From Escherichia coli (lineage in GTDB: Bacteria; Pseudomonadota; Gammaproteobacteria; Enterobacterales; Enterobacteriaceae), in NCBI RefSeq assembly GCF_051903065.1, contig NZ_CP178438.1: 64,000 nucleotides of DNA. One strand, given 5' to 3'. This document shows, in pieces, positions 16,837 to 64,000 of the stretch. The translations under genes were made by a program, and so were the position numbers. Numbering within the stretch: position 1 is the stretch's first letter; every line of letters starts with the position of its first letter. The notes beneath the pieces were generated by a model. The model searched no databases, was not told where the DNA came from, and saw only the letters and a list, made by a program, of their open reading frames with translations.

Positions 16837-19266
16837 TTATGCCTGAACAGCTGGCTGATCAAACGCCGTTAACTTCGGTGCGTTACCCGTATATTTTTCG
16901 ATATACACCAGCGCAGAGTTACCGGCACAGGCATTTGCCAGCTGCGAGCTGGGGATATCCGCCGTTAACACGTTCGCACTGCCGTTTTTACACAAGCCAT
17001 TTTCCAGATCTGGCCATGCACCTTCATGCACGCATACCACGCCTTTTTTGATCCCGTCAGTCACCACAGCGCCTGTCAGGATCTGACCGCGTTTGTTCCA
17101 GACTCGCACCAGATCACCATTCGCAATACCAAAGCGGGCAGCATCTTCGGTGTGAATAGTGATTGGTTCACGATCGGCAACCGAATATTTTTTACGCAGT
17201 TCCGCATAGTTAAGCTGACTGTGTAAACGATGTGCCGGATGTGCGGTCAGAAGCTGCAACTGCTTCTCGTCGGCGGTACCTTTCCACTCATCAGGCGCAA
17301 GCCAGGTCGGGTGTGCCGGGCAATCCTTATAGCCAAATTTCTCCAGCGTTTTTGAGTAGATTTCAATTTTGCCACTTGGTGTACCCAGCGCATTTTTCAC
17401 CGGATCTGCGCGGAAATCGCCATAGCGAACGAACTGCTCATTCTTCTCGCTGCGGCGCATTTCAAGCAATTTATTTTGCTGCCAGAAGGCATTAAACATC
17501 GGCATGGTGACGCGTTGCGCACGCGCACCTTTCTGAGCGGCATCATAGAAAAATTTCAGCCACGCCATTTCATCTCTACCTTCGGTATAGATCTCTTTTC
17601 CGCCTGGTTTCAGTAATTCCGCAAGTTCGGCAAACACGTCAAAATCGTTTCGCGCTTCAAATTGCGGAGCGACAGCCTGCTTCATCGGCACAATATGCTG
17701 GTTGCTGTAATCACCGGTCATCGTCAAGTCATTGCGCTCAAACGATGTGGTGATCGGTAATACGATATCTGCATGTTTAGCAGCTGCGGTCCAGTAGCAT
17801 TCAGAAACGACGATCATCTCCGGTTTCTGCCATGCTTTGATCAGACGATTAGTATCCTGGTGATGGGTAAAGTTACCGCCACCCGCCCACCAGATCATTT
17901 TGATATTCGGATACGTTTGTTCTTTACCGTTATGCTGATATTTGCCACCAGGATTTTCCAGCGCATCGACGATACGGGCAACAGGAATCGCCGTCATTCC
18001 GCCATCATCAGCGGCCTCGCTGGCCTGTCCGGCAATCGCCGCAGACATTTCCGGCAGCACGCCGCCAACACGCGTCGGGTTGCCACCATTGGAGTAATGA
18101 TAAGAGAAACCAAAACCGCCGCCCGGTGTACCAATCTGCCCTAACATCGCCGCCAGCGTCACCAGCATCCAGTGTTTCTGTTCACCATATTGCTGGCGCT
18201 GAATTCCCCAGCCTGCCATCAGCATTGTGCGATTCGCCGCCATCAGTTCTGCGAGTTTGACTATCTGCGCTTCCGGTACGCCAGTAATTTCCGCCGCCCA
18301 GGCCGCACTCTTCGGAGTATTATCGCTCTTACCTGTCAGATATTCTTCAAACTGCGGATACCCGGTGGTGTATTTTTCAAGGAACACTTTATCGTGTTTG
18401 CCTTGTGTCATCAGGGTATGCGCAATCCCTAACATCAGTGCCACGTCGGTGCCCATATTCGGCGCGATCCAGGTGACATTATCGCCAAAGAACTCGATGG
18501 TTTCGGAGCGGATAGGATCAATGGCAATCACTGGTTTGCCAGATTTTTTCAGCTGATGGAAGTATTCCAGCCCTTGCTCATCGGTACTGCTCCAGGCAAT
18601 TTTTAAGGTATTCAGCGGGTTCATTCCCCACAGCACCACAACCTGGCTGTTTTCCAGAATCAGCGGCCAGGAGGTCTGCTGTTCATACACCTCTACAGAA
18701 CCGACCACATGCGGCATGATCACCTGTGCTGCCCCGGTTGAATAATCGCCGCTATGCCCGGAATAACCGCCCGCCAGGTTCATATAACGTTGCAGTAAGG
18801 TTTGCGCTTTATGCAACACGCCAGAAGAGCGCCAGCCGTAAGATCCGGCAAAAATGGCCGATGGTCCGTTAGCTTTACGAATACGCTCATGTTGCTCATG
18901 AATCAGTTTTAATGCCTGTTCCCAGCTCACCTGTACATAGGTATCTTCGCCACGACCTTTCGCCGGTTGCAGTGGATTGTCGAGATAGCTTTTTCTCACC
19001 ATCGGATGCTGAATACGCGCCGTGGTGTGTACCTGATCCGCCGCCGTAGACTGTAAGGAGTTCGGTATGGTTTTCGCCAGCGCGCCTGTCGAAGAAACAA
19101 TCTTGCCGTCCTTCACTTCTACGTTCATCGCTCCCCAACGTCCCGCGGTGAGGATTTTACCGCCCTTCTCTTCTGCCCATGCGGGTAGCGGTGTAGCCGA
19201 TGTCACCACCAGCGCCCCAGCGGCAATACTGCTGTGTTTAATAAATTCACGTCTTGTTAATGTCAT
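16837..19266 (-). CDS. torZ: trimethylamine N-oxide reductase 2 catalytic subunit (molybdoenzyme)
   Basis: Tat signal [10 protein letters not shown]...; ATG at 19266..19264 after gggagg RBS; 809 aa. Confidence 0.93.
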
Positions 19267-52433: not shown

Positions 52434-53099
52434 TTAATGCAGGCAGCACTGCTTAAATTTCTTACCACTACCGCACGGGCAAGGATCGTTACGCCCCGGT
52501 TTCTCTTCTGCTATGATCGGTTGCTGAACAGCTTTTTCCTGCGGATGCGCCATCCAGTATGCATGTAAATCAAGCGCCGCCAGTCGAATGGCATCTACGC
52601 TCTCTTCAAACGCTTCTGGCGACATCTTCTCTACCCGCTCGAAGTTTTCCTGAGTACCGTGCAGCGCTATCGCCTCCAGCGCTGGTTTTAACGAATCGGG
52701 CAATGTTGACCAGTCAGAAAGTGCCACGCCCCGCATATAGCCAAAGCACCACTCCTCAACAATCGTCAGCTCGCTGCCATCAACTTCTCGCAAGCCGAAT
52801 AACGGCTCAAACTGCTCCGGGAATTCGTTCAGACGCTCTGCGGTATCGGCCATATGTTGAAAAGCCAGGTTCATAAAGCGCGTCATCTCTTTCTCTGACG
52901 CCCAGCGCGGCACATAGTCAGCCCCACCCCACACGGCAACCAGCCACTGTGCCGGTTCAATCTCTTGCGGAGAACTCAACACCGCCGTCAATAAACCGTC
53001 CAGCTCCGCCACATCAAGGATGGCGTGGTCAGTGTTGTATTTGGTCAGAATATCGTCCAGCCATTCCAACTCACTTTCGTTTAACGGTCCCGTTTTCAT
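52434..53099 (-). CDS. yecA: YecA (UPF0149, C-terminal SEC-C metal-binding motif)
   Basis: 221-aa ORF ending [15 protein letters not shown]. Confidence 0.93.
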
Positions 53100-53227
53100 A
53101 CGCTTTTCCTTGTGGATCTCAACTCGCCAGCACCTATCTTACATGCCGGTCCGTATCAGAGATACTTTTTGAGTGGCTTTGCCGGTGATTAAAAATCAAG
53201 GAGGGTGTAACGACAAGTTGCAGGCAC

Positions 53228-53250
53228 AAAAAAACCACCCGAAGGTGGTT
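53228..53250 (-). terminator. rho-independent terminator (tRNA-operon terminator homologue), repeat copy 1
   Basis: minus strand ccacc-ttcg-ggtgg hairpin + T7. Confidence 0.75.
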
Positions 53251-53294
53251 TCACGACACTGCTTATTGCTTTGATTTTATTCTTATCTTTCCCA

Positions 53295-53350
53295 TGGTAC
53301 CCGGAGCGGGACTTGAACCCGCACAGCGCGAACGCCGAGGGATTTTAAAT
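53295..53350 (-). other. 3' fragment (56 nt) of tRNA-Leu(UAA), att-site remnant
   Basis: revcomp ATTTAAAATCCCTCGGCGTTCGCGCTGTGCGGGTTCAAGTCCCGCTCCGGGTACCA = 3' part of leuZ from anticodon loop to CCA; 5' half absent. Confidence 0.85.
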
Positions 53351-55001: not shown

Positions 55002-55364
55002 GTGTATGCCAATCTACTGGCGTGGGATTACGACGGACTGACCCCTCTCAATCGCCCTCAAAATGAAGTGCAGGAAGTTATATTAGCCTCGCTGAAGCTG
55101 CTGGCGGTACAAATTAAACACCTTGAGCCTGATTTCATCATCTTTGCATCTGGAGCCCGGAGAACAGACTACATCATAAAACAGGTGCTTACTGAGCTGG
55201 GCGGCTATGAGACTTCTGCAGTCATTCCGGGGAAGCTATGGGAGTTCAAAACAGGTAATGCAATCTGTTTCAGAATTGCCCATCCAAGGGCTATGCGCGG
55301 ACACAAGAAGTACAGAGATGAGGTGATTGCACGAATTAAGCAACTTTGTACTCAGGGTGGCTAG
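55002..55364 (+). CDS. hypothetical protein, possibly 5'-truncated gene remnant
   Basis: 120-aa ORF from GTG; frame stays open back to the IS1 junction (54942), so likely a C-terminal fragment. Confidence 0.4.
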   Translation: MYANLLAWDYDGLTPLNRPQNEVQEVILASLKLLAVQIKHLEPDFIIFASGARRTDYIIKQVLTELGGYETSAVIPGKLWEFKTGNAICFRIAHPRAMRGHKKYRDEVIARIKQLCTQGG

Positions 55365-55541
55365 AGCATTACAGTTTGCTCAGCAGGCCCCCCCTTCCCG
55401 GAAGAGTACCGGAAAACAGGCAAAGCGGCCTGGTTCTCTATGCTGGAGGCGACACGTTCAATTCGGCATTGCCAGGCTGTAGATTGCAGCTCATTGCACC
55501 CCGTGAGCACAGGATATGCACAGGGCGTGAATTGCATGCAC

Positions 55542-55567
55542 AAAAAAACCACCCGGAGGTGGTTTCA
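55542..55567 (-). terminator. rho-independent terminator, repeat copy 2
   Basis: A7 + ccaccc-gga-ggtgg hairpin, homologous to 53228..53250. Confidence 0.7.
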
Positions 55568-55606
55568 CGACACTGCTTATTGCTTTGATTATTCTGATGT
55601 TTCCCA

Positions 55607-55662
55607 TGGTACCCGGAGTGGGACTTGAACCCACACAGCGCGAACGCCGAGGGATTTTAAAT
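55607..55662 (-). other. second 3' fragment of tRNA-Leu(UAA), diverged
   Basis: same 56-nt fragment with two substitutions (gagTggg / cccAcac) that stay base-paired in the T-stem. Confidence 0.85.
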
Positions 55663-55938: not shown

Positions 55939-58900
55939 TTATGCCAATTCAGACTCAAACGCTGCATCATTCGCTTCAGCCTCTGCGCCATCAATTAATG
56001 CCAAGACTCGGTCAAGAAAGCGTTGCGCTTCGTATACATCTGTTGCTTGCCGCAGATAATGAGGTATTCGTTCAACAAACTCGGAACGTGATAAAGGCTG
56101 ATGTTCCAGCAAAGCCTCAAGCATTGCGGGCCGCAACAAACGACGATCAGCATCAACATTAGGAAGCTCAACCTCAATGACATGTGTGGCAAAATACTTA
56201 AGTTGCTCCTTAAGCCCCAAATTGGGCATAAGAGAATCAATTGAGTCAGACGCCACTTCAGCGCTTGACTCAATCGTTTCTACATATTCATAGGAAGGTA
56301 CAACAACGTCTGGAGCCAATGTTTTAAGCTCATGGAGTTTACGGATAATCGGAGATAGAACCTCATCAGGATTACTGAACCAATCAGTGGACCAAATGCG
56401 GCTAATTCTCCAACCCAAACGCTCCAGAACCTCTTGACGCAAACGGTCACGATCACGAGCAGATTTAGCTGAGTGATAAGCCGCACCATCACACTCTATG
56501 CCCATTAAGTAACGGCCAGGACAACCTGGATCTTTCACAGCTAGATCAATAAAGAATCCTGCAACCCCTACCTGAGGTTCACACTCAAACCCAGCGTGAT
56601 TGAGTGCTTCCATTACAGCAACCTCAAAGTCACTATCTGGAGCCCTGCCGGTATGCGTTGTGAGGGAATCTAGTTTGCCACTTTCGGCAAACTGTAAAAA
56701 ACCTTTCAACGAAATAACACCAAGTTTACTGATTTCACTCGTCAATACATCTTCAGAACGCATTGAACTAAACACATGCATCCGTTTTTTTGATCGAGTG
56801 AAAAGCACATTCAAGCGACGCCAGCCAACATCGGAATTGATAGGTCCAAAGCGTTGATAAACCTTTCCACCATGCTCAGAAGGTCCATAGGTAAAGGAAA
56901 TAAAGATTACATCACGCTCATCCCCTTGAACGTTCTCAAGGTTTTTCACAAAAAGTGGCTCTTCCATGGCATATAAGCCATCGATTGCATCGTTAAATTC
57001 AGGGCGATTTCGGCGCAATTCATCGATAGCGCGCTCAATTTGATCGCGTTGCTTGGAACTCATGGCCACTACCCCGAGTGACTCACCCGGCCGGTGTTGC
57101 GCATGATGAAGTACGGCCTCAGCAACTGCTTGGGCTTCTTCAATATTGTGTTGATTGGAGAACCGACCTTTTGACACATAGGTAAATTTAATCCCATACT
57201 CTGGAGACTCAGCATTTGGGGAAGGGAATATCACCAAATCACTGTTATAAAAATGGCGGTTAGAGTATGCAATCAACTTTTCATGTCGTGAACGATAGTG
57301 CCAACGCAAACGTCTCATAGGAAACAGTGGCAAAGCAGCATCCAAAATGCTGTCAGTATCACTTAAAGCCGCGGCATCATCGTCATCTTCTCCGTCGGCA
57401 CTTCGATCAAAGAAACTGGTTGGTGGTAGCTGTTTCGGGTCACCAACGACCACTAGTTGCTTGCCCCTCGCGATGACACCCAATGCATCCTCTGGCTTCA
57501 CCTGAGACGCTTCGTCCATCACCACCAGATCAAATTCCATTCGTCCAGGTTCTAGGTAATGAGCTGCTGACATTGGCCCCATCATGAAACAAGGTTTAAT
57601 TGCAACCAGCGCATTACATGCACGGTTAACCAATTGCCTAATTGGAATATGTCTGGTTTTTTTACCCAACTCATTTTTGATCAAAGCTAGTTCTGTATAT
57701 TCACTTTTCTTACCACCAGAATTCCCTTCTGGTATATTTCGGCAAGCAATTTTTGCTGCAATCCGCTGACGTTGTAATTCAATCAGTTTTTTATCGTAAT
57801 CTTTAAATGACTTCTGCAAAGCATTGCGCTGTGAGCCGGAAACTCTCATCAATTCAGGGTGGATGTGAATAACCTCCCGCGCCAGCTGGTCATGAATTGC
57901 TAATGCTAAACCCAATTCAACTTTTTCAATCGGGAGCGAGCCCGCAAGTACAGCACTCCAGATTCGCTGCAATCCATTTTCATGCATCTGCTCGTAACAA
58001 CGAATAAAGTTAACCCACCCGTTCAACCAACGGGGTTGCTGTATTGCTCTTTCGTTGCGCTCGATTAATGTATTAAGAGAACCATCAGTCGACTTGAGCC
58101 ACTGACTCCGCTCTAACTTTGTTTCTAGCGCATATAACTCAGCATTTTTAATCTGTTCATTCCATTTCGAAACTATTTCCCCACCATCACGACATAGTAA
58201 ATCGTAATCACTACCACTAGCCAAATGTCTGATCTGGGTAGCCAAGGATACGCAATTTATCTTATCAACCAGTTGCTCGGCAAAATTCAGCGTGTCGTTA
58301 ATAGTGTCTAACGTCAGTTGATTATTTTTATACGCACCGCAAGCCAATGGGGTTAATTGTAAAAACGCCCCTAACTGTAACGAGTCATTTTCAAGGGATA
58401 TCTGAAGATCGTTTATGTTTTGCAAAATCTCGGAGGAATGAGTCATCTGCTCTAATGATATATCTGGATTGATAAACCATCCCTGCAAGGCAATGAGAGT
58501 ATTCCGCACCTGTCGGTAAGATTGCATCAATACACCTTGCTCACCTAACCAAGATGCATGTTCTTCCAACAAGCTAGAAATACGCGGTAATAACTTAGCC
58601 TCGTGCTCGACCCGTTTAACCAAAGTCATTAATCTTGAGCTAATCTGCGATTTCTCGATTAAATGCACACCTTTGATAATCTCACCATCTAGGTTAAATA
58701 ATCCAGAGCCTATCGCAACTCGCTTTCCAAAACCTATCCCGTAACAAGCTCGGACCTTCTTGTACCAATCACGCAATAACATGAGTTGTTCACAGTCGGT
58801 GTCCAACCCTCGGAATGCATTACCAAGTTGATTACCAAAGTCACTTTGTTCAAACCGTTGTAACAGCTCCGAATACTTGAGCAAATCAGCTGAGCAGCGT

Positions 58901-61686
58901 TTTAACTCAGCAAACTTAGTGTCAGGCTTACGAGATTGCGCCATGAGCAGTGCCTTGGCACTACGCCAATCACTCTTAAACCATGCAAATAATCCCCCTT
59001 GCTGGATAACAGCAACGGCATGCGCGAGCATCTCTTGGGAAGGCAACTGGTCCAATTGATACAAAGTAGATAGACCATCTCTTAAAGGACGCAATGTTTC
59101 GATTTGACACATTAAGTCGCGCAATACTGCATCGATATCATCATCATCAAAAAGAGGATCTCGAACTCTAATAAGCTCAGTCGGTAAAGCACCCAGAATC
59201 GACAACAACTCAGAGCAGAATAGCAATCCAGCTTGCGAATCATCGATATACGAAGCAATACCATCTGGCAAAGCATTTTTGAAATCGTTTAATTGCGCAT
59301 AAATAGATGATAACTCATCATGAATTGATTGGATGGATTCAAGCCACCTGACCAAATCACGTAAAGTGAAATCCTCTGCTGCACCATATTTTTCCAGCTC
59401 TTCACGAGGAAAGTCACACGATTGTCCTTGTTCTAAAAGTCGTAGCTTTTGAGGCTCGATAACCTGGCTCAAGGCCACATAATGACCTTGTAGCAACTCG
59501 AACCTATCTAAATAGTGACGCACCCGTGCAATGGCATCGGGTGAATCTAGCTCACTAAGTGCTGGGAAATGCTCTGAACCACACAACACTGGAAGATTCG
59601 ACTGATCTTCTACCAATTGCTCAATATATTGAAGCGTATTAAGGCTTTCGCCTTCTAACGCCCACTTATCTACATATTCTTGATAGCTATGTTGAAAGTC
59701 GATAATTGATGTCTGCCAAGTTTGTAGCAAATCGACTATACGAGCGCTGTCAAACAATTGAATTTGTGTGTTATTCACACCGCTCCAAGGGTGCTCATAT
59801 ATTTCTGCATTAGCCCCCACCTGCTCACGAACCTCTTTGTAGATGCGGCTAAACTCTACTATTTGGTCACGCAGCCGTAATTGGGTCACTTTATCCAACT
59901 GCTTCCCGGAAAGGTTTTCGATATGAAGTGCTGTTGCATCAATATCTAATTTGTGACGATAACGGGTTGCACCACTCAAAATCTGATGGATCGTTTTGCC
60001 TGTTTGCGCCCATTGGTTATTGATCAATGCGGCATATTCATTGAGCTGCTGCTTAAGATCTTCATAACGCAAAATCTGAGCATCAATCTCTTCCATAGTA
60101 GGCATGGTCGCCTGACTCACCAAGCGAGCATTAATATCATCCAGCACCTTGCGCTTATGAGTTTTATGACTGTGCAACTCTAAGCAAAATTGACCTAGCC
60201 CCGCACGATCCAAGCGACGTTTGACGACCTCCAGTGCAGCCATCTTCTCTGCCACAAACAGGACTTTCTTACCGTTGAGCAGAGCTGCTGCAATCAAGTT
60301 GGTGATCGTTTGTGATTTGCCACTACCAGGAGGGCCCTCAATGACTAAGTTTTGACCACGGATAGCATCGATCAACGCACTGTGCTGCGAGCTATCCGCA
60401 TCATCGATTAGTGGAACCTTGTCATGAATATCAGGGTAACTATCGATGCAGTACTCATGCTGACCGAAGCCACCAGGTAAGCCGGAATTCTCTTGACCAC
60501 AGCTCTGACTGGTGAAAAAGCGACGAATTACTTCATGAGACAATATATTGCGCTTGTCACAAGGCCAGCGGGCAGGATCGAGGTCAAGATACATCATCAT
60601 CTTGCCAAAATTGAGCAAGCTAAGTGCACCATAACGTTTCACAGACCATTTAGGTTTGTGCTGCTCTACAACCTTCTTCACCGAAGCAAAATAAGACTCT
60701 GGAGTTTCCTCTTCATTGAACAAAGGAAGAGCGAGGCCAAAGTCAGCCTGAAGTTTTTCCTTCAAAGAGAGATTGGGCAAAATATCTTCACCCGTGTAAT
60801 AAAGTTGAAACTTGTAAAGACCATCCTTCGGATCTAATTTTCCTCGTTCACATCTCACCGGAATTGTAAATAACGGTGCATAACGTGCCTTTTCAGAGGA
60901 ATCGCTTTCATACCACTCAAGGAACCCTAACGCCAAATACAAGATGTTGGCGCCACTCTCCTCCAAAGCAGTTTGAGCCTTACCATAGATGGCGCGCAAA
61001 CAAGCTTCCAGTTCATTTGGATAAAGCAGAGCCTGTATCCGATTATCGTCATGAGAGGGATTGGAAGAAGATATACTAATCTCATTCCCAGCCTTTGCCT
61101 GTCGTTCAAAATCCTCAAGCCCTTCATAGCCTGCTAAGCAGCACGCCTCCTTCAACGCTGACAAAGCTATACCTTGATTAACGTATTCAGAACGAATCCC
61201 TGTTAATTTTCCATTCTGGCCTTGGGCATATTGCAAGATAAACTGATGGGCTTTTTCCAGCAACTCTCTATCTGAATCAGAAACAACCGTTTTATGGCTA
61301 TCTGGTAAATCAAAATCTGTACGGATTCCTAAGACGTGCGCCCAATCCTTAGCGCTAGGATGAGCTCTTAACTGTATATCTTTACCATCTGGCCCAACTT
61401 TGAGATAGCCATGCTCTAACAGCTGCGCTCTAGTTGGATCGGGCACAGGAGCAAATTCCATCGGGATTTCCGAGCAAAGGGTTTCATAAAGCTGTTCTGG
61501 TAATTCATCAACAATACGTAGTGAAGACCCTTTTTGAGTGATAGGGAAATTCAAAAGTCGATTTCGAGACGTAAGGTCCAATAACTTCTTACGCATAGCC
61601 TCGAGGGAAGTCAGAATAAAATCTGAGCCTCCTTGATTGAGTTCCTCTGCTGTAGAGGTATCTACAGTCGACATAATGTTCTCCAT
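55939..61686 (-). CDS. giant helicase-nuclease (1915 aa): DUF4011-like N-terminus, Upf1-like SF1 helicase with ~940-aa insertion, C-terminal Vsr/DUF559-like nuclease domain
   Basis: LLDLTSRNRLLNF and LALGFLEWYE near N-terminus; Walker A GPPGSGKS (res 451-458, nt 60313..60336); DEAS (res 1391-1394, nt 57505..57516); VVVGDPKQLPP; GDERDVIFIS; GWRRLNVLFTRSKKRMHVF; C-terminal FFIDLA...IECDGAAYHSAKSARDRDRLRQEVLERLGWRISRIW (nt about 56377..56628). Confidence 0.85.
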   Translation of the reverse strand: MENIMSTVDTSTAEELNQGGSDFILTSLEAMRKKLLDLTSRNRLLNFPITQKGSSLRIVDELPEQLYETLCSEIPMEFAPVPDPTRAQLLEHGYLKVGPDGKDIQLRAHPSAKDWAHVLGIRTDFDLPDSHKTVVSDSDRELLEKAHQFILQYAQGQNGKLTGIRSEYVNQGIALSALKEACCLAGYEGLEDFERQAKAGNEISISSSNPSHDDNRIQALLYPNELEACLRAIYGKAQTALEESGANILYLALGFLEWYESDSSEKARYAPLFTIPVRCERGKLDPKDGLYKFQLYYTGEDILPNLSLKEKLQADFGLALPLFNEEETPESYFASVKKVVEQHKPKWSVKRYGALSLLNFGKMMMYLDLDPARWPCDKRNILSHEVIRRFFTSQSCGQENSGLPGGFGQHEYCIDSYPDIHDKVPLIDDADSSQHSALIDAIRGQNLVIEGPPGSGKSQTITNLIAAALLNGKKVLFVAEKMAALEVVKRRLDRAGLGQFCLELHSHKTHKRKVLDDINARLVSQATMPTMEEIDAQILRYEDLKQQLNEYAALINNQWAQTGKTIHQILSGATRYRHKLDIDATALHIENLSGKQLDKVTQLRLRDQIVEFSRIYKEVREQVGANAEIYEHPWSGVNNTQIQLFDSARIVDLLQTWQTSIIDFQHSYQEYVDKWALEGESLNTLQYIEQLVEDQSNLPVLCGSEHFPALSELDSPDAIARVRHYLDRFELLQGHYVALSQVIEPQKLRLLEQGQSCDFPREELEKYGAAEDFTLRDLVRWLESIQSIHDELSSIYAQLNDFKNALPDGIASYIDDSQAGLLFCSELLSILGALPTELIRVRDPLFDDDDIDAVLRDLMCQIETLRPLRDGLSTLYQLDQLPSQEMLAHAVAVIQQGGLFAWFKSDWRSAKALLMAQSRKPDTKFAELKRCSADLLKYSELLQRFEQSDFGNQLGNAFRGLDTDCEQLMLLRDWYKKVRACYGIGFGKRVAIGSGLFNLDGEIIKGVHLIEKSQISSRLMTLVKRVEHEAKLLPRISSLLEEHASWLGEQGVLMQSYRQVRNTLIALQGWFINPDISLEQMTHSSEILQNINDLQISLENDSLQLGAFLQLTPLACGAYKNNQLTLDTINDTLNFAEQLVDKINCVSLATQIRHLASGSDYDLLCRDGGEIVSKWNEQIKNAELYALETKLERSQWLKSTDGSLNTLIERNERAIQQPRWLNGWVNFIRCYEQMHENGLQRIWSAVLAGSLPIEKVELGLALAIHDQLAREVIHIHPELMRVSGSQRNALQKSFKDYDKKLIELQRQRIAAKIACRNIPEGNSGGKKSEYTELALIKNELGKKTRHIPIRQLVNRACNALVAIKPCFMMGPMSAAHYLEPGRMEFDLVVMDEASQVKPEDALGVIARGKQLVVVGDPKQLPPTSFFDRSADGEDDDDAAALSDTDSILDAALPLFPMRRLRWHYRSRHEKLIAYSNRHFYNSDLVIFPSPNAESPEYGIKFTYVSKGRFSNQHNIEEAQAVAEAVLHHAQHRPGESLGVVAMSSKQRDQIERAIDELRRNRPEFNDAIDGLYAMEEPLFVKNLENVQGDERDVIFISFTYGPSEHGGKVYQRFGPINSDVGWRRLNVLFTRSKKRMHVFSSMRSEDVLTSEISKLGVISLKGFLQFAESGKLDSLTTHTGRAPDSDFEVAVMEALNHAGFECEPQVGVAGFFIDLAVKDPGCPGRYLMGIECDGAAYHSAKSARDRDRLRQEVLERLGWRISRIWSTDWFSNPDEVLSPIIRKLHELKTLAPDVVVPSYEYVETIESSAEVASDSIDSLMPNLGLKEQLKYFATHVIEVELPNVDADRRLLRPAMLEALLEHQPLSRSEFVERIPHYLRQATDVYEAQRFLDRVLALIDGAEAEANDAAFESELA

Positions 61687-61860
61687 TTCTTAGGGTCCAC
61701 AAGTAAAACGTTTTATGCTGATGCATCACAAAAAGACCGCAGTAAACTGCTGCAAAGAAGAGGAGATTTTTAGTCTCCCCTTCTTTATCAATCAGATCAT
61801 ACAATCAACTTAACGCCCATTAGTTGATAGCAGCCAAATTTCATAAACAGATTCAATCCG

Positions 61861-63903
61861 TTATTGCTGAATTTGATTGGATAGTAAGACCTGCAACATA
61901 TCTTGTTGATGCACAGCTATCTCATCTTCCAGCCAACGACCTTTATCTTTCATCAGCCGAATCATAGCAAGCAATTTAAGACTATCAGTCTGGTTATTGG
62001 CAAGGCTTGCTTCAAAGTGCTCCTGCTTCTGTTGCGGCTGGAAGTTACTCAAGCGCGAGTTCTTGCTGTGGCTGATAAGGCAAAGGTTGCCAAACGAATG
62101 GAGTGCACTCTGCTCAACCGGTTTATAGCCATCCATCGGATGCTGGGGTGAGAAGTGCTCCACCGAGCTGCGGAAAGTGAACTCAAAGGAGCCAGCAACT
62201 TTGTCGCTATTCCGATCTCGTACCCACAGCAGATAGTCGAGGAAGTTGAAGACAAAGTTGTTCTCGATATGACCGAAGCGAAGTTTGGATGTAATCACCT
62301 TGTGCCAACTCTCATCCACATTGATGGCGGGCAACAGGGCGTTATCAAGGTAGAGCATCTGGTAATAGGAAGCCCCTTCACCAGGCGCCAAAAAGCGCTG
62401 GAAGACAAAGCGGCGAGCCTGACTCTCCAGATAGGACAGATAAGCCCCGGCATCCACCGGTTGATCAGGGTGACAATTGTCGAACAGATATCTCAGTGCA
62501 CCATTCAGCCAATGTTTGTAAACCAGGGTCGGGGTCGACACATGAAACGCCGACAGCAACATCAGGACCCGCCGGTTAACACCAGAGAAACCATTCTCAT
62601 TTTCATCCTTGTCAAAGGTATTGATGTAACTGACGCTCTTTTCCGAATACCAGTGCAGCCGCTTCAGACTCCAACTATCCTTGCCATCGGCAAACTCGCG
62701 CTTGATGATGAACTGATCAAACAGATACTTGCTCTTTAACAGGCCATAGATAAAACGCTGAACTGCCGCTACTGGATCCGGTTGCCTTATCACTCGCAGC
62801 TCAAACTGATCGACCAGTTGTTTATCATCAAGCGGCACCCCCTCCGTATCACCCGGGTCGCGGCTCACGAGTCGCAGCACATGGAGCAAGAAGTTGGAGA
62901 AGTTGATGACGCTGTTAAAGCGCTCGGAGCCTGCGCTCTCCTCCTCCACCGTCTGCTCACCATCAAGCTTGTCATCCTGCAAAATGGCCAACAAGGTGCG
63001 CCCTTGGCTACCGGCAGCTGCACGGCTTTTATCGGCAGCGTCGGCCGTGTTTGGGGATCCTAGCAGATCAAGCAGATGGGCAAAGTCACGGGGCACAAAC
63101 TGACCCCAGTCGCTCTCACCAAACAGACGGTGGCGCTCTTGCGGGGTAAAGCCGTACTGGATATAGCGCTCCATATTGGCGCAGGCATCCCATACCCGGG
63201 TCAGGATATGAATACTTTGGCGACGATGCTCTTCCTCGGGTATCTGGTTCAGCGTCTCCATCAGCCGCGCCTTGATCACTTCATGCTTTTCCAACTGCTC
63301 GCCGCGATTGTTCATCGCCTCGAAGAAGTGATTGAGATCGGTATCCTTGGGTACTTCGATACGAGAGATCTGCACATGCTTGAAGAGGTAGTCGCAAAAG
63401 GTCGTCAGTTTAGCCCCTACCAAACCAAGATCCGCCATTGCCTTGCCAATCAGCTCAAAACCGTTCACCAAACCTTCATTGAAGGTACTCCCCCGCAAAT
63501 CGTAGGGGGCAACACCCTGCCATAAGCGCTCGAAGGTATGGCTCGATATCGGGCGACTCTCAAAAGCGAGGTTGATGGTCTGATACCAGCTCATATCCAC
63601 CGAATCTATCGCGTGATGTTTGAGCCAATTGGCCAGCAGAGAGAGGGTAGTAAAGCGCTGCTGGCCATCGATTACCTCGAAACTGCCATCGTCCCGGGCA
63701 AACACCACCAGGGTGCCGATATAGTAGGTTTGCGGCCCCTTACCACTGACCAATTTTTGCTGATAATCCAGCACATCCTGCAGCAGCTGGGTGATCTCTC
63801 CCTCACCCCAGGCATAGTTGCGCTGGTACATGGGCACCAGATAGCGGGCGCGATCTTCAAGCAGTGCACGAATGGAAAAGGGGCGAACGCCTGCATCATT
63901 CAT
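61861..63903 (-). CDS. DUF262 (ParB-like NTPase/nuclease) + DUF1524 (His-Me finger) protein, GmrSD-like putative type IV restriction enzyme
   Basis: N-terminal [16 protein letters not shown] and [12 protein letters not shown] (res 79-83); C-terminal [12 protein letters not shown]...[18 protein letters not shown]. Confidence 0.85.
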
Positions 63904-64000
63904 AATATTTCATCTCCCGAAACAGCCCGACCAGCTCATCTTCGGCACCATTGCGATTGTTCTTGTTCTCTCGACTGCTCATGCTAGGCAAAGGGAAGCC
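63896..64000 (-). CDS. 3' end of an upstream ORF running off the window (partial)
   Basis: minus-strand frame open from 64000 to TGA at 63898..63896 (...[28 protein letters not shown]); ATGAATGA overlap with the DUF262 start. Confidence 0.4.

Follow-up and report, generated by a model that had tools for sequence, protein, structure and literature searches.

The open reading frame (ORF) that runs off the end of the window (i.e., the whole 64,000-nucleotide stretch of the Escherichia coli contig NZ_CP178438.1 that was analyzed) is almost certainly the terminal part of gmrS1. This gene is the upstream member of a probably translationally coupled two-gene system for modification-dependent (type IV) restriction (gmrS1-gmrSD2), of the GmrSD_ECOR17 type in the TgvAB family. 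In terms of annotation, the DUF262 gene at 61861..63903 is therefore best read not as a stand-alone GmrSD, but as the nuclease-bearing subunit of a type IV enzyme encoded by two genes, the other of which (gmrS1) is truncated by the end of the window; the adjoining hhe gene is best read as a separate system. Translation of the minus strand confirmed the initial annotation in that the frame stays open for 34 codons between the window edge (64000) and a TGA stop codon (63898..63896), which overlaps the start of the 680-aa ORF (ATG at 63903..63901). The two frames have eight bases in common (ATGAATGA, 63903..63896), and this overlap is likely the translational coupling site of gmrS1 and gmrSD2 (features are listed in Table 1). 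Taken by themselves, the window letters provided weak evidence for the edge frame: a 34-codon open stretch has a probability of about 0.20 in random sequence, and an internal ATG at 63982 makes an alternative 28-codon peptide conceivable. Extension of the sequence was therefore needed to decide.

The reference for the region past position 64000 was E. coli NZ_AP045789.1 (strain 23CRST027), which is identical to the last 12 kb of the window (megablast, complete E. coli genomes) and differs from its last 30.5 kb by 0 mismatches and 2 gaps (blastn). The edge frame runs upstream in this genome into a 483-aa annotated CDS (WP_000443937.1) whose final 34 residues equal the window translation, so that gmrS1 spans window-equivalent positions 63896..65347 with 7% of the gene lying within the window. 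The overlap had initially been taken to suggest an operon partner outside the window, and gmrS1 is this partner: in the matching genome, no early stop was encountered beyond 64000 and 483 codons are open, and the protein has >5000 homologues. A chance open frame, or a 28–34-codon peptide with no partner gene, would be compatible with the chance probability of about 0.20 and with the ATG inside the frame, but it is ruled out by the 483 open codons in the matching genome, and the number of GmrS1 homologues and the conservation of the C-terminal tail of GmrS1 leave it practically no probability. This tail, including the part encoded in the window, is conserved family-wide, with L475, F476, and Y482 invariant in 17 sequences. 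The exact sequence of the 680-aa protein is encoded by hundreds of assemblies. Among the contexts returned, the 483-aa gene (Pfam GmrSD_N + DUF7834) overlaps the start of the 680-aa gene by 8 nt in 6/6, and the next gene after the latter is a 1911-aa DUF4011 helicase gene, also in 6/6, interrupted by mobile-element insertions in one of them.

Table 1 Features of the gmrS1-gmrSD2 locus and its island. Positions are those of the window unless stated otherwise; L007 is the NZ_AP045789.1 locus.
Feature	Position	Strand	Evidence or remark
gmrS1 3' end (last 34 codons + TGA)	63896..64000	-	Translation equals C-terminus of WP_000443937.1
8-nt stop/start overlap of gmrS1 and gmrSD2	63896..63903	-	Read from sequence
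Shine-Dalgarno-like GGGAG	63918..63914	-	10 nt upstream of gmrSD2 ATG
gmrSD2, 680 aa (DUF262 NTPase/sensor, helical linker, DUF1524 His-Me finger nuclease with E582, H583)	61861..63903	-	Pfam and ECOR17 identity
Two terminator-like hairpins in the 186-bp gmrSD2-hhe spacer	61737..61779	-	Consensus scan and sequence
hhe, 1911 aa, DUF4011 SF1 helicase-nuclease	55939..61674	-	PADLOC, NCBIfam, RefSeq annotation
Antisense shadow ORF, 149 codons, ATG start, not a gene	63538..63987	+	Stops in homologous loci
Antisense ORFs in L007	L007 18514..18963 and 18354..18629	-	Relative to GmrSD2 ATG at L007 18598
att-like repeat (3' ~56 nt of tRNA-Leu + flank), proximal boundary of the hhe-gmrSD2-gmrS1 segment	55314..55662	.	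97% identity to the region beside the intact tRNA-Leu (L008)
Second tRNA-Leu 3' fragment (att repeat) adjoining yecA, outer end of the composite island	53218..53350	.	
Chromosomal yecA flanking the island integration site	52434-53099		
Site-specific integrase	Window-equivalent about 88435..89634, ~24.4 kb past 64000		NZ_AP045789.1
Intact tRNA-Leu(UAA)	Window-equivalent about 90697..90783, ~26.7 kb past 64000		NZ_AP045789.1

The gmrS1-gmrSD2 system is already known: GmrSD_ECOR17 (GmrS1 + GmrSD2) has been described and experimentally characterized as a two-gene E. coli type IV restriction enzyme (Nat Commun 2025;16:7828, PMC12373910). Compared to the full ECOR17 proteins (taken from the supplementary alignments of PMC12373910), GmrS1 is identical to APT18_07330 at 482/483 positions, including the 34 window-encoded residues (the difference is R294S), and GmrSD2 to APT18_07335 at 678/680 positions (T168A, R348C). 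The E582/H583 nuclease-site motif is present in GmrSD2 of this locus, the two antisense ORFs of the NZ_AP045789.1 locus extend 84 and 244 bp beyond the GmrSD2 ATG on its upstream side, exactly as in the published locus, and WP_000443937 and WP_032636150 are members of clusters CLS_004 and CLS_003 in that paper. The ECOR17 genome also contains hhe, a likeness that refers to presence and not to adjacency. Differences from the characterized system comprise three substitutions in total, a different host strain, and the island, which here is a pipolin at tRNA-Leu.

Published experiments showed that the ECOR17 enzyme is specific for T-even phages: T2, T6, and T4 without ip2 and ip3 are restricted when GmrS1 and GmrSD2 are both present, neither protein restricts by itself, so that both genes are required, and the T4 protein Ip3 blocks the enzyme (PMC12373910). 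A GmrSD2 E582A/H583A mutation abolishes defence, and the two-gene construct by itself protects a lab strain (PMC12373910). The adjacent partner seen here is consistent with the published report that GmrSD2 by itself gives no defence. Given that the proteins of this strain are 99.7–99.8% identical to those of ECOR17, the pair is predicted to have the same restriction function.

Based on Pfam, the two proteins share the N-terminal domain and differ in the remainder. GmrS1 (483 aa) comprises GmrSD_N (residues 20-207) and DUF7834 (219-464) and showed no nuclease domain, and GmrSD2 (680 aa) comprises GmrSD_N (12-215) and GmrSD_C (DUF1524, His-Me finger; 555-671), with the DGQQR motif found in both. 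Profile-profile comparison (hhalign) detected no homology between the two families beyond DUF262 and gave no basis for matching DUF7834 to the linker of GmrSD2. The AlphaFold model of GmrS1 (pLDDT 90.2, pTM 0.81) has the GmrSD-family protein DndI (9jfl_A, E = 7e-8) as its best structural match, followed weakly by BrxU, such that the predicted GmrS1 fold resembles that of DndI and, to a lesser degree, BrxU. A sequence search of the PDB returned no match for GmrS1 and only weak N-terminal matches for GmrSD2. The single-chain enzymes GmrSD, BrxU, and SspE likewise combine DUF262 with DUF1524 and carry out modification-dependent restriction; however, they consist of one polypeptide (acting as homodimers), whereas the present system needs an additional DUF262 paralogue that lacks a nuclease.

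RefSeq names both genes only 'DUF262 domain-containing protein', NCBIfam has no family for either GmrS1 or GmrSD2, and neither NCBIfam nor PADLOC (2023) has a model for the pair. Membership of either DUF262 protein in HEC-06, Orf5, or SspE was rejected, because these PADLOC models, which are 530–790 residues long, gave no full-length match, the best-scoring stretches being confined to the DUF262 core in their N-terminal ~100 residues. A dedicated pair model would correct the annotation of about 5% of complete E. coli genomes and hundreds of Klebsiella plasmids. The practical value of the present locus is this correct annotation and not new biology, given that it combines a known system (GmrSD_ECOR17, TgvAB family), a known Hhe, and a known kind of island (pipolin at leuZ).

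A further related system is Vibrio cholerae TgvAB (VC1767/VC1766, VPI-2), a two-gene GmrSD-like system located within a type I R-M operon, both genes of which are required and which targets T-even phages with glucosyl-hmC (Vizzarro et al. J Bacteriol 2024, PMC11411939; bioRxiv preprint 2024, PMC11014532). The E. coli pair is a distant homologue of TgvAB according to protein comparisons (BLASTP), with GmrS1 showing 25% identity to TgvA (E = 1e-21, along the whole ~399 residues available) and GmrSD2 24% identity to TgvB (E = 8e-21, along the first ~399 residues available). Even though identity between the E. coli and V. cholerae proteins is only 24–25%, the two systems share adjacent genes, a DUF262 protein A with no nuclease, a DUF262 + DUF1524 protein B, the DGQQR motif, and an overlap of 8 bp (reported for the tgvA/tgvB ORFs in PMC11014532). 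Table S5 of Vizzarro et al. contains, among the hits of the TgvAB model, the E. coli pair FORC31_2075/2076, which has the same N-termini, as well as copies from C. freundii B38 and Klebsiella plasmids. One feature of TgvAB, embedding within the type I R-M operon, was not found here: the E. coli pair does not lie between hsdS and hsdR, but after hsdR and an M48 peptidase gene, behind IS scars. Because the TgvAB authors also count non-embedded pairs as homologues, embedding is a typical rather than an obligatory feature of the family.

To determine how widely the pair is conserved, we scanned one genome per species and obtained 80 loci with GmrS1 relatives (38–97% identity) from Gamma-, Beta-, and Alphaproteobacteria, Bacteroidota, Verrucomicrobiota, Spirochaetota, and Campylobacterota, as well as one actinobacterial metagenome-assembled genome (MAG) and one Methanobrevibacter MAG. 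A usable GmrS1 homologue was available in 79 of the 80 loci. It is directly followed by a GmrSD2 homologue in 76/79, and the other three loci end at a contig edge. Stop and start codons overlap at 69 of the 76 junctions, most often by 8 nt (n = 43), followed by 11 nt (n = 9), 4 nt (n = 8), 17 nt (n = 7), 14 nt (n = 1), and 1 nt (n = 1). The VPI-2 arrangement, in which the pair is embedded as hsdM-hsdS-[A-B]-hsdR-M48, was present in 29/76 pairs.

The pair on the Methanobrevibacter MAG contig (locus L078, 8039-11288; 41% and 39% identity to GmrS1 and GmrSD2, 17-nt overlap) suggests either transfer into archaea or a binning contaminant.

We propose that the 8-nt overlap probably couples translation of gmrS1 and gmrSD2, so that both proteins would be made together, and that GmrS1 and GmrSD2 probably act as a hetero-oligomer; a report of a physical interaction between the two was not found in the literature. 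GmrS1 would contribute a ParB-like DUF262 NTPase/sensor domain (DGQQR) and the helical DUF7834, with no nuclease, and the two DUF262 NTPase/sensor domains of the complex would gate a single His-Me nuclease, with NTP gating proposed from the homodimers of BrxU and SspE. The pair would then recognize the glucosyl-hydroxymethylcytosine DNA of T-even phages, which the GmrSD2 nuclease would cut, and the injected T4 protein Ip3 would block the pair. In terms of expression, fragments of IS1 and of an IS3-family integrase core end no more than 25 bp from the gmrS1 start (L007 16583-17150; window-equivalent about 65351-65918), and these IS remnants replace the hsdS-proximal context found in other species. 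A promoter scan upstream of gmrS1 returned counts not above the shuffled expectation, and the sole candidate overlaps the start codon, so that no convincing promoter was found. Transcripts reading through from hsdR and the M48 gene, or an outward-facing promoter within the IS remnant, may drive expression of gmrS1.

The 1911-aa gene downstream of the pair is a full-length Hhe, reportedly a single-gene system in Gao et al. 2020 (HheA in DefenseFinder). Its product matched the PADLOC Hhe model over the full length (4302.8 bits) and the NCBIfam Hhe_antiphage equivalog (2735.9 bits; cutoff 2000), and DefenseFinder, PADLOC, and NCBIfam all class it as a system of one gene. Vassallo et al. 2022, in which the term Hhe has 0 occurrences, was rejected as its source. 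At least part of the module was found in 313/5426 complete E. coli genomes, 242 of which contain all three genes at ≥99% identity, and in 422 plasmid records (404 from Klebsiella, mostly conjugative), 189 of which contain all three. The three genes are co-linear at ≥99% identity on chromosomes, pipolins, and Klebsiella conjugative plasmids.

This distribution, the co-linearity of the three genes on one strand, and their joint occurrence in Aeromonas australiensis could be taken to mean that gmrS1, gmrSD2, and hhe form one three-component system. However, the Aeromonas locus (L009) is the only one of the 76 other-species loci in which Hhe adjoins the pair, the remaining 75 having no Hhe beside it. 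The pair is also kept without hhe on many Klebsiella plasmids in the listed sample (IS1 replaces hhe in the one inspected), and between gmrSD2 and hhe there are 186 bp of spacer that contain terminator-like hairpins. These hairpins are only suggestive as terminators, and the count of terminator-like sites in the scanned region was not above chance. Experimental results point in the same direction, given that the two-gene construct suffices in a lab strain (PMC12373910) and that ECOR17 with hhe deleted still blocks T4 lacking ipIII (PMC9391042). Together with the single-gene classification of Hhe, these results largely refute a three-component system, which we consider highly unlikely. The three-gene arrangement raised by the initial annotation was therefore conserved in part: the pair stood (76/79 loci), and the third gene, hhe, did not (1/76 loci). 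Because the pair is conserved and experimentally sufficient and Hhe is rarely adjacent, the functional unit is the two-gene pair, and the three-gene order is a recent, mobile co-location. Hhe lies outside the gmrS1-gmrSD2 system and is a frequent neighbour only in Enterobacteriaceae.

Two further explanations for these linkage and conservation patterns, unlikely even when taken jointly, are functional layering of hhe and the pair in Enterobacteriaceae, as opposed to hitch-hiking, or a dual purpose of the GmrS1 tail. In the first case, Hhe could, for example, target phages or DNA ends evading the type IV enzyme or generated by it (e.g., Ip3-carrying T4), and in the second the conserved tail (…LFREMKYYE) would possibly combine two roles, forming a protein interface and providing the site at which GmrSD2 translation is coupled.

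A 71-bp segment just upstream of the hhe start (L007 20754-20824; window 61677-61747) is also found by itself, at 100% identity, on unrelated plasmids of E. coli and Enterobacter, and forms the end of the match in many pair-only Klebsiella plasmids; it may be a relic or a site at which recombination or insertion recurs. One genome has a group II intron reverse transcriptase gene (RVT_1 + GIIM) directly downstream of hhe (L001 18557-20065), and in another hhe is broken by IS elements and a group II intron (L004 12230-18700). The hhe gene appears to be a frequent insertion target.

The plus-strand ORF at 63538..63987 had initially been regarded as the probable antisense shadow of the edge frame, and this view was supported by comparison with homologous loci. 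The frame is intact in just two relatives, the nearest ones (97% and 90% identity), and contains 2–9 stops in each of 18 homologous loci at ≤70% identity, and other antisense frames are likewise closed in homologous loci. The same ORF corresponds to the 'antisense small ORF' reaching 84 bp upstream of GmrSD2 in PMC12373910, in which truncations keeping only 84 or 244 bp upstream (the reach of the two antisense small ORFs) were inactive, i.e., constructs that retain the antisense ORF but truncate gmrS1 gave no defence. Because of the closed frames in relatives and the published truncation result, we favor the shadow interpretation. The reverse assignment, which makes the plus-strand ORF a real gene or regulatory element with the minus-strand edge frame as shadow, would draw on an ATG-initiated ORF of 149 codons that spans the gmrS1/gmrSD2 junction; it is vanishingly unlikely in view of the broken frames, the inactive constructs, and the strong Pfam hits and homologues of the minus-strand frames.

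The island that carries the module is of the pipolin type and lies at tRNA-Leu (leuZ), flanked by pgsA and yecA. Moving away from the window in NZ_AP045789.1, gmrS1 is followed by the IS1 and IS3 fragments, an M48 peptidase gene, hsdR, a yecA-like SEC-C gene, hsdS, and hsdM (i.e., a locus order of hsdM-hsdS-yecA-like-hsdR-M48, IS remnants, gmrS1-gmrSD2-hhe), then by a tyrosine recombinase gene, IS5, and piPolB, and then by WYL, DUF726, and DUF2787 genes. Farther out come a site-specific integrase gene, intact tRNA-Leu(UAA), tRNA-Cys, and tRNA-Gly, and pgsA, so that both the integrase and the intact tRNA anticipated beyond position 64000 were located. The piPolB gene encodes a primer-independent family-B polymerase that is a hallmark of pipolins. 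Based on the presence of piPolB, two tyrosine recombinases, and WYL and DUF2787 genes beyond the window (L007 1-2397; L008 600-3200), the island is a pipolin, and the window holds only its defence-cargo end. The direct repeats at 53218-53350 and 55314-55662 are 96–97% identical to the sequence by the intact tRNA ~27 kb beyond the window, and both include the downstream hairpin region of tRNA-Leu(UAA). Given these two copies of the tRNA-Leu 3' end in the window, the island at leuZ is composite and consists of tandem elements.

Between the two repeats lie 2 kb with an IS1 and two truncated genes, one for a restriction endonuclease and one hypothetical. Within the type I R-M operon, the yecA-like SEC-C/UPF0149 gene between hsdS and hsdR (L007 11724-12407) is 57% identical to the chromosomal yecA. 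Other contexts (L001-L005) contain an extra gene of 594–620 aa with no Pfam hit between the yecA-like gene and hsdR, and this may represent an uncharacterized system embedded in the type I R-M operon.
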